A stretch of 64,000 nt of DNA, taken from an uncultured Acidimicrobiia bacterium (GTDB lineage: Bacteria > Actinomycetota > Acidimicrobiia > Spongiisociales > ZC4RG35). The translations under genes and the position numbers were made by a program. Under the pieces are notes generated by a model. It saw only the letters and a program-made list of their open reading frames with translations. It was not told the DNA's origin and searched no databases. Every line of letters starts with the position of its first letter. Position 1 is the first letter of the stretch. The DNA is taken from positions 12,622 through 76,621 of the forward strand of contig CAXMOW010000004.1 in assembly GCA_964195235.1 (NCBI GenBank). Direction: 5' to 3'. Below, piece after piece: positions 13,573 through 55,466 of this stretch.

Positions 13573-14595
13573 GTGACAGACATTCGACTCACGGGATACA
13601 GCCACGGCGCTGGCTGAGGCTGCAAACTCGGCCCGGCCGAGCTGGCTCAGGTTCTGAGCCCCGTTCAATCACATCCTTCCACCACCCATCCTGATCTCCT
13701 CGTCGGAATCGGCACGGGCGACGACGCCGGCGTGTACTCGCTGGGAGACGGACGCGCCCTGATCCAGACAATCGATGTGTTCGCGCCTGTGGTCGACTCC
13801 GCCCGGGATTGGGGTCGCATCGCCGCCGCCAACGCGTTGAGCGATGTGTACGCGATGGGTGCCGAGCCGCTTACCGCCTTGCAATATCTTGCATGGCCAA
13901 GAGACGAATTGCCGCTCGAATTGGCATCGGAAGTGATTATCGGTGGGATGGATGTCATGGCCGACGCCGGTTGCACGGTTGTCGGCGGTCACTCAATCGA
14001 CGGTCCCGAGCCCCACTACGGGTTTGCGTTGACCGGCCTGGCTCCGGTCAACGGGATTCTCACCAATGCCGGCGGCCGACCTGGAGATATCCTTGTACTG
14101 ACTAAACCTCTAGGCATGGGGATCATCGCCACCGCCATCAAACGAGCTCGTTGCTCTCCCGAATTGGAAGCCGAAGCTGTGCGTTGGATGAGTCGGTTGA
14201 ATCGTGAAGCGGGTGTCGCCGCCGCAGACTTTGGAGCAAACGCTGTGACTGATGTCACCGGTTTTGGCTTGCTGGGGCATCTCCGCGAGATGTGCGAGGC
14301 GTCGGGGGTCGGCGCCGAGATCGACTTCGAGCGGGTGCCGATTCTGTCCGGCACATCTGAATTGCTGGCTGCGGGGATGTGGCCTGGCGGTTCGAGTCGC
14401 AATCTGGTGGCAGTGATAGAAGACGTGGTCAGCGAGCGGGACGTCGAGGAGATCAAACTTCTGGCCGACGCCCAGACAAGTGGGGGATTGCTAGTGGCGT
14501 TGCCCGCTGACGGAGTCGATCGATACGTCGAGATCGTTGACGGTGCTGCGGCTATTGGCTCCCTCACTTCTGAGAAGTCGCTCCAGGTGGTTTAA
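13573..14595 (+). CDS. selD: selenide, water dikinase (selenophosphate synthetase), selenocysteine-containing (TGA at 13615-13617)
   Basis: From GTG 13573 the frame reads VTDIRLTGYSHGAG-TGA-GCKLGPAELAQVL and continues in frame into track ORF 13732-14595. E. coli SelD reads IRLTQYSHGAGCGCK at this site (from memory). Sec/Cys at this position is well known. Confidence 0.85.
13627..13660 (+). promoter_or_regulatory. candidate bacterial SECIS hairpins downstream of the selD UGA
   Basis: CTCGGC-CCG-GCCGAG (13627-13641) and GGCTCAG-GTT-CTGAGCC (13644-13660) are both perfect stems, 12-45 nt after the UGA. Confidence 0.45.
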
Positions 14596-43560: not shown

Positions 43561-43617
43561 CGGTGCTGTCTACGCGAATTCGGTAGGTTCGGTGTGACCG
43601 ATACGAAAGGATGTCTA

Positions 43618-45186
43618 ATGGCGATTTTCTCCAGTCCGTTACCCGATGTGGAGATCCCCACGTCGGCGATAACTCCCATGGTCTTTCGGCACACTGCGGA
43701 GCTGGGGGACAAGCCGGCCATCATCGACGGGACCTCAGGTCGCAGTTACACCTACGCAGAGCTTGCTGGAGCCACCAGCAAGGTCGCCGGTGGTTTGGCG
43801 GCTCGGGGCTTCGGATCAGGCGACGTACTTGCCATCCTTGCCCCCAACCTGCCCGAATACGCCATCGCCTTCCATGCAGCTGCAACAGTCGGCGGAGCGG
43901 TAACGACGATCAATCCGACCTATACGACCGAAGAGGTTCGCTTTCAGCTCGAAGACTCGGGCGCCAAGTTGTTGCTGACGATTCCGATGTTTCTCGACAC
44001 GGCTCGCGAAGCGGCAGCGGGAACGGACGTCGAAGAATTGTTCGTTTTGGGTGATGCAGACGGGGCGACATCCTTCTCCGAGCTATTGGCAGCCGAGCCT
44101 TTCACCGGGAATCCAGACATCAACCCTGATGAGGATGTTGTGGTTCTCCCCTACTCCTCCGGTACAACAGGGTTCCCCAAGGGTGTGATGCTCACGCACG
44201 CGAACCTGGCGGCAAACCTTGCACAATGTGCGCATTTCACTGCCCTCGATGAGGACGAGGTGATCGTGGCGGTTCTTCCTTTTTTTCACATCTACGGGAT
44301 GCAGATCCTCATGAACGGAGTGCTCTACAACGGAGCAACGACGGTGACGATGCCGAGGTTCGATCTGGCCGAGTTCCTGAAGATCGTCGAGGACTACAAG
44401 GTAACTCGTCTGTACGTCGTGCCGCCCATCATCCTGGCCTTGGCCAAGCATCCCATGATTGATCAATATGACCTGTCGAGCGTGAGGCAGATCTTCTCCG
44501 GTGCGGCCCCTCTTGGTGCCGAGGTCGAGGCGGAGGCCGCTGAGCGGGTTGGTGCCGAGGTGGTCCAAGGCTATGGACTCACCGAGACCAGTCCGGTGAC
44601 TCACGCCACACAACCCGGCAAGGCTCGTTCGGGATCCATTGGGTTTGTCATCTCAAACACAGAAGTGCGGGTTGTCGATCCAGAAAGTGGTGCCGACCTC
44701 GATGTTGGAGATGAGGGTGAGATCTGGATCAAGGGCCCACAGGTGATGCAGGGCTACCTGAACAACCCAGAAGCGACACGCTCCACCATCGATGCCGACG
44801 GGTGGCTTCACACTGGCGACCTCGGACGGGTAGACGAAGACGGCTATTGGTACATCACCGATCGGCTCAAGGAGCTGATCAAATACAAATGATTCCAGAT
44901 CGCACCAGCCGAGTGGGAGGCTTTACTCCTGACTCATCAATCGGTTGCAGATTCGGCCGTGATCCCCGTGCAGGACGTGGAGGCTGGGGAGATTCCCAAG
45001 GCTTACGTGGTGCTCAAGCCCGGACAGGAAACCAGCGCGGAAGAGCTCATGGGATACGTCTCGGGACAGGTGGCAACCTACAAACAGATCCGAGAGCTGG
45101 AATTCATCGACGAGATTCCGAGGTCTCTGTCCGGAAAGATCTTGCGAAGGGTGCTGCGTGACCGCGAGGGGGCAGCGGGCTCCTAG
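43618..45186 (+). CDS. AMP-dependent acyl-CoA ligase (4-coumarate-CoA ligase-like) interrupted by an in-frame TGA at 44890-44892 (pseudogene or recoding)
   Basis: Track ORFs 43594-44892 and 44959-45186 are in the same frame. YSSGTTGFPKGV, GYGLTE and [26 protein letters not shown] are followed by TGA and then [13 protein letters not shown]...GKILRR. The TGA sits where the family has Gly (KYKGFQ). Confidence 0.7.
44911..44935 (+). promoter_or_regulatory. hairpin 19 nt downstream of the acyl-CoA ligase in-frame TGA
   Basis: GAGTGGGAG-GCUUUA-CUCC(U)G-ACUC: 9 pairs including one G.U and one bulge. Its significance is not testable by eye. Confidence 0.2.
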
Positions 45187-53028: not shown

Positions 53029-54039
53029 GTGAAGACTGCTTACGGGTTGATCGCCATCGCCTTTCTCACACTGGTTGCGTTCTGGCTGGTGGGATCAGAC
53101 GCAGATCAGATTCAGGTCGATGCAGGATCAATTGAGGCTCCTGATGACGCGTATGACCCGGTCAAGGCTGGTGAGCCGACACCCGAGGGTTATCGCCAGC
53201 TGCTCTTCCGAGATGCGATTCTTCCGGTGTACAACCCGACCTTCCGAAGTGTTTCTGCCACCGAATGGTCAGACGACACGCTGGTGATCGGAGTTGAGCT
53301 GGATGATGAGGCCAAGGCGTATCCGGTCCAGTTCCTCAATCGTCGCGAGATGGTCATTGATTGGATCGGAGGTTCGCCGATCTTGGTGAGTTGGTGACCA
53401 CTTTGCGCGACGGCGATGGTCCATCGTCGAGATTTGGGCGGAAAGATACTGGTCTTGGGTAACCAGGGTGCGTTGTGGGGAAACGCTATGACCTGGTGGG
53501 ATCACGACACCGGCTCGGTCTGGAGCCAGCCGCTGGGTGAGGCCATCATCGGACCTCGAAAAGGCGACCGTCTCGAATTGATGGCGTCACAACTGACTTC
53601 TTGGAAAACGTGGAGAACCGATCATCGCGAAACTCTCGCCTTGGACGCACCCGGCGGCGACACGAGGTTCCGGCTCAGCAATATGGCAATTGTCGTTGAC
53701 TTCTCTGACGAGGTAGCCGTCTACCCAGTTCCTGATCTGTCCATCCACGGGCCGGCCAATGACTTTGTCGCCGGTGTCCCGATAGCCGTGGTGCTGGACC
53801 CTGTTACGCCGGATAGGTGGCACGTGTTTCACCGACGTCTCGGAAGTCAGTTGCTCACGCTTGCTGTAGTGGATGGCGCCATCGTCGACAACGAGACGGG
53901 AACCACATGGGATCCAGCCAACGGAAGAGGCCTGAGCGGGCCACTGGAGGGAGAGATTCTCGACACACTCCCCGGTTTCACCTCCTATCAGTCGGATGCC
54001 CGTACGTTCTGGCCTGACGCCAAGTACTGGACGGGCTGA
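53029..54039 (+). CDS. DUF3179-family protein, candidate selenoprotein (TGA at 53395-53397 replaces the first Cys of the CPLC motif)
   Basis: Track ORFs 53029-53397 and 53416-54039 share a frame. Read-through gives ...AKAYPVQFLNRREMVIDWIGGSPILVSW-U-PLCATAMVHRRDLGGKILVLGNQGALWGNAMTWWDHDTGSVWSQ, which matches my recollection of the DUF3179 core (..TYCPLC...F..SG.L....M.D..T.S.W.Q). It has an N-terminal TM/signal helix. Confidence 0.7.
53408..53429 (+). promoter_or_regulatory. candidate SECIS hairpin for the DUF3179 UGA
   Basis: CGAC-ggc-GAU-GGUCC-AUC-GUCG. The apical loop contains GGU about 23 nt after the UGA. Confidence 0.4.
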
Positions 54040-54057: not shown

Positions 54058-54246
54058 ATGAGCGACAATGTGGCTATGACCAAAGAGACCAAATGGCGTA
54101 GCGCAAGTCGAGGTCTTCCTGCTTGGGCCTTAGGTCTGATGATCGCTGTCGTGCTGTTCGGCATAGGGATCATTGTTTTCCAGGCACTCGGATTTGGTGA
54201 CAACCCGGTCCTTGGTGACACAGCTGCGACACTTCGCTCTCTGTGA
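54058..54246 (+). CDS. small single-pass membrane protein
   Basis: MSDNVAMTKETKWRSASRGLPAWALGLMIAVVLFGIGIIVFQALGF... It lies between the DUF3179 gene and the MFS gene, whose GTG start overlaps its stop (GTGA). Confidence 0.4.
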   Translation: MSDNVAMTKETKWRSASRGLPAWALGLMIAVVLFGIGIIVFQALGFGDNPVLGDTAATLRSL

Positions 54247-55466
54247 CCGAAGCGGAATCCACACGGACCACTAGATCCCCAAATGGCGCCCTCGGCCTCA
54301 TCGCTGTCGGCCAACTACTTGCCCTGAGCCTTTGGTTCTCCGCCTCGGCTGTGGCGCCTCAACTTCGAGATGAGTGGGGGTTGGACACCGGGCAGGTTGC
54401 CGGTCTCACACTGATGGTTCAGATCGGGTTCGTGGTTGGAGCCCTTGCATCGGCGGTGTTCAATCTTGCTGACATCGTCCCAAGTCGTCGCCTCTTTCTC
54501 ATTGGCGCACTGGGTGGAGCGTTGGCCAATCTCGGTTTGCTTTTCATCAACTCGAACGCGGTGGGCGTGGGAATGGGGCTCCGTTTTCTCACGGGACTGT
54601 TCTTGGCCGCTGTCTACCCGGCAGGGCTCAAAGTGATGGCAGGCTGGTTCAAGACGGGAAGAGGCCTGGCACTTGGTTTACTCGTTGGCGCGCTGACGAT
54701 TGGCTCGGCTTCGCCACATTTGGTGCGAGGTATCGGTTTGGGTTGGCGCGGTGTCGTCATATCGGCCTCGGTGCTGGCGGGTATTGCCGCATACATGATG
54801 ACCAGGGTGGGTGATGGCCCTTACGAGACCTCCGGGCAGCCGTTTCGTTGGAGACAGGTCGGTGATGTTCTTGCCAACAGGGGAGTCCGATTGTCGACGT
54901 ATGGCTATTTGGGTCACATGTGGGAGCTCTACGCCATGTGGACTTGGACCGCCGCCTTCCTTGTGGCATCGGCGAACGAGGCCGGGTCGGGCTACGGCTC
55001 GATCTCCATAGTCACTTTCTTTGTCATTGCGGTAGGCGGTCTCGGATCATGGTGGGCGGGTTCGCTCGCGGATCGGCACGGACGGACCACGATTGCAGCA
55101 GGAGCGATGGCGATATCTGGCACTTGCGCCCTCCTCACTCCTTTTGTGTTTGGTTCTCCGGTATGGGTTGTCGTACCCCTGATGTTGCTTTGGGGACTCA
55201 CGGTTGTTGCTGACAGCGCCCAATTCTCCGCGATGGTCACCGAGACCGCTGATGACACTGTCAGAGGAACCGCTCTCACCCTGCAAACGGCAGTGGGGTT
55301 TCTGCTGACGTTGGTGACAATCCGTTGGGTGCCTTCGCTGGCTGAAAGTCTTGGATGGCAGTGGGCATTCCCGGTGCTGGCTTTGGGACCTGCATTTGGC
55401 GTCGTGGCGATGTTTCGGCTCAAGACAAGCTCACACGCCGCGCAGTTGGCCGGTGGGCGCGGATGA
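54243..55466 (+). CDS. MFS transporter
   Basis: 12 hydrophobic helices and GSLADRHGRT (MFS motif A-like). 407 aa. Confidence 0.75.
   Translation: MTEAESTRTTRSPNGALGLIAVGQLLALSLWFSASAVAPQLRDEWGLDTGQVAGLTLMVQIGFVVGALASAVFNLADIVPSRRLFLIGALGGALANLGLLFINSNAVGVGMGLRFLTGLFLAAVYPAGLKVMAGWFKTGRGLALGLLVGALTIGSASPHLVRGIGLGWRGVVISASVLAGIAAYMMTRVGDGPYETSGQPFRWRQVGDVLANRGVRLSTYGYLGHMWELYAMWTWTAAFLVASANEAGSGYGSISIVTFFVIAVGGLGSWWAGSLADRHGRTTIAAGAMAISGTCALLTPFVFGSPVWVVVPLMLLWGLTVVADSAQFSAMVTETADDTVRGTALTLQTAVGFLLTLVTIRWVPSLAESLGWQWAFPVLALGPAFGVVAMFRLKTSSHAAQLAGGRG

Follow-up and report, generated by a model that had tools for sequence, protein, structure and literature searches.

The 64,000-nucleotide (nt) stretch of DNA analysed here, referred to as the window and providing all coordinates given below, carries on its forward strand a gene of the DUF3179 family that is interrupted by an in-frame TGA codon at positions 53395–53397. 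Judged from sequence comparison, it is very probable that this codon is translated as selenocysteine (Sec) by SelB-dependent insertion, which would be directed by an mRNA hairpin located at 53411–53429.

Two open reading frames (ORFs) make up the gene. The upstream ORF (53029–53397) begins with a GTG start codon, encodes 122 amino acids (aa) and ends at the TGA, and the downstream ORF (53416–54039, 207 aa) follows in the same frame after a gap of 18 nt. Reading through the TGA gives a product of 336 residues that contains the sequence ...GGSPILVSW-[TGA]-PLCATAMVHRR.... With Cys put in place of the stop, this product matches the Pfam family DUF3179 (PF11376) with an E-value of 3.8e-51 and a score of 174.7 bits (gathering cutoff 27). 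Profile positions 1–64 are aligned before the TGA and positions 66–155 after it, which places the TGA at profile position 65, and each half clears the threshold separately (46.6 and 104.8 bits). Sharing one frame and a match that is continuous across the stop, the two ORFs are one DUF3179 gene broken by the TGA, as a preliminary description of this DNA had proposed; the read-through peptide is exactly the one quoted there. A scan of the product against NCBIfam matched no family, and a profile search of PDB sequences yielded nothing (best E-value 0.97). The N-terminal transmembrane helix that had also been claimed is confirmed as a hydrophobic segment comprising residues 4–22. A similar stretch is found in every full-length relative, often with Arg or Lys ahead of it, and the DUF3179 domain probably lies outside the cytoplasmic membrane, a topology suggested by this segment. 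The gene and its elements are as follows.

53029–54039, forward strand: complete gene of a predicted DUF3179 selenoprotein; 336 sense codons, one of them a Sec-UGA, terminal stop TGA at 54037–54039; PF11376 spans the internal TGA, and tblastn matches in related genomes cover query residues 1–336.

53038–53094, forward strand: N-terminal hydrophobic segment, a putative signal-anchor or transmembrane helix; residues 4–22, AYGLIAIAFLTLVAFWLVG, with a Kyte-Doolittle 19-residue mean of 2.19.

53395–53397, forward strand: in-frame UGA, very probably read as Sec (residue 123); first position of the U-P-L-C motif (53395–53406) and a Cys column in relatives; TGA in 80/80 loci and in four independent assemblies.

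53398–53415, forward strand: stretch of 18 nt from the TGA to the following ATG, with codons for P-L-C-A-T-A and coding-type variation.

53411–53429, forward strand: predicted bacterial selenocysteine insertion sequence (SECIS) hairpin, 21 nt after the UGA; 8-bp stem 53411–53418/53422–53429 (CGGCGAUG/CAUCGUCG), loop GUC at 53419–53421, apical G-GUC-C.

A protein search covering about 5.8 billion proteins found more than 1000 relatives, from which the best 120 clusters were used as alignment evidence. Within this set, 41 relatives are full-length, and all of them carry W-C-P-L-C (41/41), the Cys in the TGA column and the Cys in the +3 column both being invariant. The TGA therefore takes the place of the first Cys in CPLC, in agreement with the preliminary description. 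The other 79 of the 120 clusters are C-terminal fragments of 195–232 aa, mostly of exactly 207 aa, which start at the Met after the UGA and thus indicate that gene callers stopped at the same codon. For the genome comparison, the 80 best-matching loci out of 330 genome hits, obtained by tblastn against species-representative genomes, were evaluated. TGA occupies the Cys column in all 80, which are at 53–73 % amino acid identity and come from 76 metagenome-assembled genomes (MAGs), almost all labelled Acidimicrobiia or Acidimicrobiales. Moreover, the 122-aa ORF again stands ahead of the 207-aa product in four independent assemblies of this population, of which ENA supplied two and JGI and Logan one each, and all four agree on the TGA.

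Both flanks of the TGA vary as coding sequence, and no decay of the downstream half is seen. The differences per site at codon positions 1, 2 and 3 amount to 0.27, 0.25 and 0.58 upstream and to 0.15, 0.09 and 0.45 downstream of the TGA, third positions dominating in either case. No stop occurs in the 60 codons upstream in any of the 80 loci, and the open frame downstream has a median length of 213 codons. In the 18 nt at 53398–53415, Pro and Cys are 100 % conserved, and synonymous codons vary (CCG in 61 and CCA in 19 loci for Pro, TGC in 58 and TGT in 22 for Cys, and five codons for Leu). Since Pro and Cys are fixed while their codons vary, this segment is translated and not intergenic. Among the 35 long frames of the window, TGA is the ordinary stop most often used (20 frames), and it terminates the DUF3179 gene itself, which argues for a local recoding event and not for a reassigned code.

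Four MAGs each contain two TGA-form DUF3179 genes on different contigs (loci L011/L063, L015/L060, L020/L045 and L024/L076); in these, Sec-form paralogues coexist in one genome, or within one bin. Six loci (L003, L020, L021, L045, L053 and L069) represent an Acidimicrobiia-type gene in MAGs labelled Boseongicola, Kiloniellales, Gammaproteobacteria, Gemmatimonadales or Saprospiraceae, and mis-binning or mislabelling of the bins may be behind these labels.

Shortly after the UGA, folding the window sequence to minimum energy and deriving a consensus fold from 80 sequences both lead to a hairpin with an uninterrupted 8-bp stem, with energies of -10.1 kcal/mol for the hairpin alone and -12.66 for the consensus. 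It is situated inside the coding sequence for T-A-M-V-H-R. The published model of the bacterial SECIS (bSECIS; PMC13188914, Fig. 2A) comprises a loop of 3–9 nt on an upper stem of 4–16 bp, a distance of 16–37 nt from the UGA, a G in the first two loop positions (N1-G-[G/U]-N-N2) and a minimum free energy of at most -7.5 kcal/mol. By direct comparison with this model, the DUF3179 hairpin agrees with all four constraints. The preliminary description had thus correctly placed a SECIS-like hairpin at the right distance after the UGA. The register drawn there (CGAC/GUCG and GAU/AUC stems with a bulge, 53408–53429) had to be replaced, and its outer CGAC arm falls in columns that vary between species.

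The synonymous sites of the hairpin are frozen across the loci. Its codons are ACG in 80/80, GCG in 80/80, CAT in 80/80 and CGC in 75/79 loci. Thr, Ala and Gly positions that are just as invariant in other parts of the alignment use three to four codons each (entropy H = 1.3–1.9 bits), and the other invariant His outside the hairpin is encoded by CAC in 75/78 cases. The Cys-form locus L085 serves as a control: here the identical peptide CPLCGTAMVHRREL is encoded as ACC GCA ATG GTC CAC CGC, by which the hairpin is destroyed. The Cys forms L087 and L089 are relaxed too, so that the synonymous sites of the hairpin are relaxed in three of the four Cys-form genes checked. The exception, L011:3122 (TGC), is found about 1.1 kb from the TGA copy L011:4274, keeps the full hairpin (ACG GCG ATG GTC CAT CGT) and, from its sequence, appears to stem from a recent conversion of Sec to Cys or a duplication.

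The SECIS of Escherichia coli fdhF is likewise a hairpin within the coding region just past the UGA and exposes G-U in a small apical loop, GGUC, in which G23 and U24 are numbered starting at the U of the UGA. In contrast to the fdhF element, the DUF3179 hairpin has no bulged U in its upper stem, and its loop is about 2 nt farther from the UGA, the apex being G24-G25-U26-C27-C28. Both hairpins fit the consensus model of PMC13188914.

A second Sec gene in the window, encoding the Sec-containing SelD already pointed out in the preliminary description, is confirmed by its TIGR00476 match:

13573–14595, forward strand: selD (selenide, water dikinase), Sec form; TGA at 13615–13617 (GAG-U-GCK), TIGR00476 with 383.8 bits (cutoff 125), start codon uncertain.

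Two consecutive hairpins follow the selD UGA. The second, at 13644–13660 (GGCUCAG-GUU-CUGAGCC; fold of 13625–13660 -19.3 kcal/mol, z = -2.6), has the apex G-GUU-C and resembles the G-GUC-C of the DUF3179 hairpin, which would be consistent with a single SelB reading both elements. A heuristic scan of the window for other genes with an in-frame TGA, using open frames and a GC3 filter, produced 42 candidates, all unconvincing, and missed both true cases. The neighbours of selD appear by eye to be GreA-like and MgtE-like and gave no match to SelA or SelB. A further order of Acidimicrobiia, the Actinomarinales, has been reported to possess selA, selB and selC together with a Sec-form SelD (bioRxiv 10.64898/2026.04.03.716425).

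According to the proposed mechanism, UGA 53395–53397 would be recoded during translation: the mRNA hairpin 21 nt downstream would act as a bacterial SECIS that recruits SelB carrying Sec-tRNA(Sec), and the ribosome would insert Sec rather than terminate. Several results weigh against this reading. The covariation test of the hairpin in 80 sequences gave 0 compensatory pairs with an almost invariant stem, and because such a stem yields no compensatory changes it is solely the frozen synonymous sites that speak for the structure. Folding of single sequences gives modest z-scores (-1.2 to -2.2); with these, and with a conserved TGA and frozen synonymous sites, the support for the hairpin is comparative rather than thermodynamic. 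Rfam, in which bacterial SECIS elements are poorly represented, gave no match at gathering thresholds in the whole window. Neither SelA nor SelB was found among the nine large window ORFs tested, and no tRNA-Sec was detected in the window, which contains no tRNA at all, or in 60 related loci. In addition, DUF3179 (representative MDJ0986319.1) is placed under 'predicted with high confidence' in Table 1 of PMC13188914, that is, as predicted and not experimentally verified.

If the UGA were a true stop, a 122-aa membrane-anchored fragment and a separate 207-aa protein re-initiated at ATG 53416 would be produced. This split is exactly the one annotated by automated gene callers, and the ATG 18 nt past the TGA is conserved in 79/80 loci; however, the Met is also kept, within TAMVH, in uninterrupted Cys-form proteins. 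Two separate genes are very unlikely, since the 18 nt between the ORFs are under coding-type selection with fully conserved Pro and Cys, the beta-hairpin would be cut between the two CxxC residues and the 207-aa part would be left without a membrane anchor. Moreover, a hairpin that is frozen here, though relaxed in three of the four Cys forms checked, would be left unexplained. Read-through without Sec, by near-cognate Trp or Cys or owing to a reassigned code, would draw on the fact that UGA is the leakiest stop codon, and on selA, selB and selC not being observed in the window ORFs and related loci searched. It is nevertheless very improbable: TGA is the usual stop in the window and ends the DUF3179 gene as well, the hairpin fits the SECIS model, the position is Cys in homologues, and the genome has a Sec-form SelD whose own production needs Sec decoding. 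A lone in-frame stop in MAG-type sequence is the usual signature of an artefact, but a sequencing or assembly error, like a decaying pseudogene, is effectively refuted, given the recurrence of the TGA in four independent assemblies and in 80/80 loci from 76 other genomes together with purifying selection on both halves and the lack of additional stops.

The gene had been put forward as a candidate for a new selenoprotein family, which it is not: DUF3179 (PF11376, UxxC/T) is tabulated as a prokaryotic selenoprotein family in PMC9312934 (2022) and PMC13188914 (2026), both citing Zhang & Gladyshev 2007 (PMC1976440), and the NCBI product name 'DUF3179 domain-containing (seleno)protein', carried by Cys-form homologues from Acidimicrobiia MAGs, allows for it. 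The entry in Zhang & Gladyshev 2007 (PMC1976440) is probably 'OS_HP1' from the Olavius algarvensis delta-1 symbiont, an identification made by elimination from Table 2 because the 2007 paper predates the Pfam name. The gene is a correct independent rediscovery of a catalogued, already known family. It shares with the catalogued members the Pfam family, Sec as the first residue of UxxC, the existence of Cys homologues and a stem-loop downstream of the UGA. In contrast to the catalogued copy from a deltaproteobacterial symbiont, the present one derives from Acidimicrobiia (Actinomycetota), where Sec is predicted in all 80 best-matching loci and the SECIS is almost invariant. What the present analysis adds is the tandem duplication of DUF3179, a predicted fold resembling Rieske/NirD and not thioredoxin, and recurring CcdA/TlpA-like neighbours. 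Neither this architecture nor this neighbourhood is described in the literature found on DUF3179.

The fold was assessed with an AlphaFold2 model of P0003, the closest full-length Cys relative, which is 57 % identical to the window protein. The model is mostly beta, with a mean predicted local distance difference test score (pLDDT) of 91 and a predicted template modelling score of 0.87, and its DSSP assignment puts the CxxC at a beta-hairpin tip, spanning the end of the strand and the loop. When the two domain halves were compared profile to profile, the probability was 99 % with E = 1.4e-17, which makes DUF3179 an internal tandem duplication. C/U-P-L-C, the His and W-W-D-H are confined to the first repeat, and D-P-x-D and V-D occupy the corresponding places in the second. 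In a Foldseek search against the PDB, the top ~40 matches consisted entirely of Rieske ferredoxins, oxygenase Rieske domains and NirD, with probabilities of ~1.0 and target-normalised template modelling scores of 0.5–0.6, but with E-values of only 0.013–0.1. Each DUF3179 repeat is about the size of one such domain, and D-x-x-T-G, which follows the second beta-finger in both repeats, recalls Rieske ferredoxins. DUF3179 gives no match to the Rieske Pfam family by sequence even at E <= 10 and does not contain the ligand set CxH...CxxH; the conserved residues are instead C-x-x-C...H...D-H, the CxxC being situated where the first ligand loop would be expected. The modelled fold can thus tentatively be called Rieske/NirD-like.

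Downstream of the DUF3179 gene, two further ORFs are closely spaced on the same strand:

54058–54246, forward strand: ORF of 62 aa with one hydrophobic helix; no Pfam family, conserved by tblastn in the 10 closest loci.

54243–55466, forward strand: MFS_1 transporter gene (PF07690, E-value 1.2e-24).

The end of the 62-aa ORF overlaps the start of the transporter gene by 4 nt (GTGA), an arrangement that suggests translational coupling, and the ORF is possibly co-transcribed with the DUF3179 gene. HSP20, DUF3179 (Sec form), the 62-aa membrane ORF and the MFS transporter follow one another in this order in the 10 closest loci. When the flanking ORFs of all 80 loci were clustered, the MFS transporter was the most frequent neighbour (22–23/80 loci within ~4 kb, on either strand), and a second, Cys-form DUF3179 paralogue was found in 7–10/80 loci. 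Within the same distance, a DsbD_TM/CcdA-type membrane protein (PF02683, 38.2 bits) and a membrane-anchored, TlpA-like Redoxin/thioredoxin with the motif WCPSC each occur in 10/80 loci. One or both of these genes are present in 11 of the 80 Sec loci and both together in nine (L015, L016, L018, L019, L028, L033, L036, L039 and L043), where the pair is located about +2 to +4 kb from the TGA on the minus strand, usually beyond the MFS gene.

The Cys-form locus L085 has a different layout, with a Redoxin gene, a weak DsbD_TM match, MsrA and a MerR regulator. Beside its two Cys-form DUF3179 genes, at L085:4445–5145, the MerR regulator is accompanied by a 70-aa ORF that matches only Pyr_redox_dim, the C-terminal dimerisation domain of such oxidoreductases (E-value 5.9e-07), and may be a truncated or stop-interrupted pyridine nucleotide-disulfide reductase gene. 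Elsewhere in the window, at about 43594–45186 on the forward strand, two ORFs in different frames (43594–44892 and 44802–45161) correspond to a single 522-aa AMP-binding enzyme on a near-identical contig (L081:203–1771); this split may reflect a frameshift or a strain difference.

The product of Sec insertion would be a 336-residue protein held in the membrane by its N-terminal helix, with the domain facing outward. This domain would consist of a tandem duplication of a Rieske/NirD-like beta module, with U-P-L-C present only in the first copy, at the tip of a beta-hairpin. On the reading that we prefer, the Sec/Cys pair would be a selenol/thiol redox centre with a selenenylsulfide as an intermediate of its cycle, and it would be kept reduced from the cytoplasm by way of an electron carrier of the CcdA type in the membrane and an extracytoplasmic thioredoxin of the TlpA type. 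A function as a membrane-anchored thiol oxidoreductase is therefore a plausible prediction. The combination of CcdA with a TlpA/ResA-type thioredoxin is the standard electron route out of the cytoplasm, which reduces extracytoplasmic clients of the CxxC type, and such neighbours suggest that the site would have to be kept reduced. The TlpA/ResA-CcdA pathways serve cytochrome c maturation and also reduce Sco and CoxB; their known clients are CxxC or CxxxC proteins outside the cytoplasm, and DUF3179 is not known to be among them. As in these pathways, a CcdA-like protein and a WCPSC thioredoxin are encoded near the Sec-form gene in 9–11 loci. In contrast to the established client systems, the association of DUF3179 is seen in a minority of loci, does not extend to this window and is one of gene proximity. 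The family motif, UxxC/T (PMC9312934, PMC13188914), follows the CxxC-derived pattern typical of thiol oxidoreductases.

A redox role has to be set against several observations. The modelled fold, in which the CxxC does not stand at the N-terminus of a helix as in thioredoxins, is clearly not thioredoxin-like, and the DUF3179 protein has no match to a Pfam family of thioredoxins. CcdA/TlpA neighbours occur in only ~14 % of the loci, which may go back to a single sub-clade or two related ones; in this window the pair is not beside the gene. Furthermore, TlpA systems also reduce metal-binding, namely copper-binding, cysteines, so that the CcdA/TlpA context cannot tell redox catalysis from metal binding; it points to an extracytoplasmic redox or metal site.

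It is accordingly possible, though we consider it rather doubtful, that Sec is inserted but U-x-x-C (residues 123 and 126) serves to bind a metal or metal cluster instead of acting as a catalytic redox pair. With the conserved H132, D158 and H159 it would then be part of a beta-finger derived from a Rieske domain, in a protein that deals with soft metals or metalloids, such as Cu, Hg, Fe or Se, on the outer side of the membrane. Rieske proteins carry two ligand pairs at the tips of two successive beta-hairpins, and the DSSP string of the model likewise shows two beta-hairpins in succession, one with the CxxC at its tip and the other with D-H. The uniformly Rieske/NirD-type PDB matches of a model with a pLDDT of 91 favour such a site, as do the replacement of CPLC in the C-terminal copy by D-P-x-D, which offers ligand-type residues, and the MerR and HMA genes near Cys-form loci. 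None of the Foldseek E-values, however, reaches 1e-3, the Rieske signal and the canonical CxH...CxxH are missing from the sequence, and the Thr variant of UxxC/T suits a redox motif better.

Returning to the seleno/thiol reading, the wider proposal is a tentative one: DUF3179 might represent a class of extracytoplasmic seleno/thiol enzyme built on a duplicated Rieske-like module, in which Sec-x-x-Cys replaces the first cluster-binding loop and is reduced by CcdA and a TlpA-like thioredoxin, with Sec near fixed across a large part of the Acidimicrobiia and an almost invariant SECIS.

As a claim of discovery the gene matters little, the family having been in selenoprotein catalogues since 2007. 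Its practical relevance lies in annotation, since the DUF3179 gene is systematically mis-annotated as two ORFs in Acidimicrobiia MAGs, NCBI records included. The frozen 20-nt hairpin ACGGCGAUGGUCCAUCGCCG could mark such genes for the repair of these calls and provides a lineage-specific example of a SECIS. The Rieske-like tandem architecture and the CcdA/TlpA neighbours supply first concrete, testable hypotheses for the function of DUF3179. If the wider proposal were true, DUF3179 would be among the most widespread actinobacterial selenoproteins, with a tractable entry point to its substrate.

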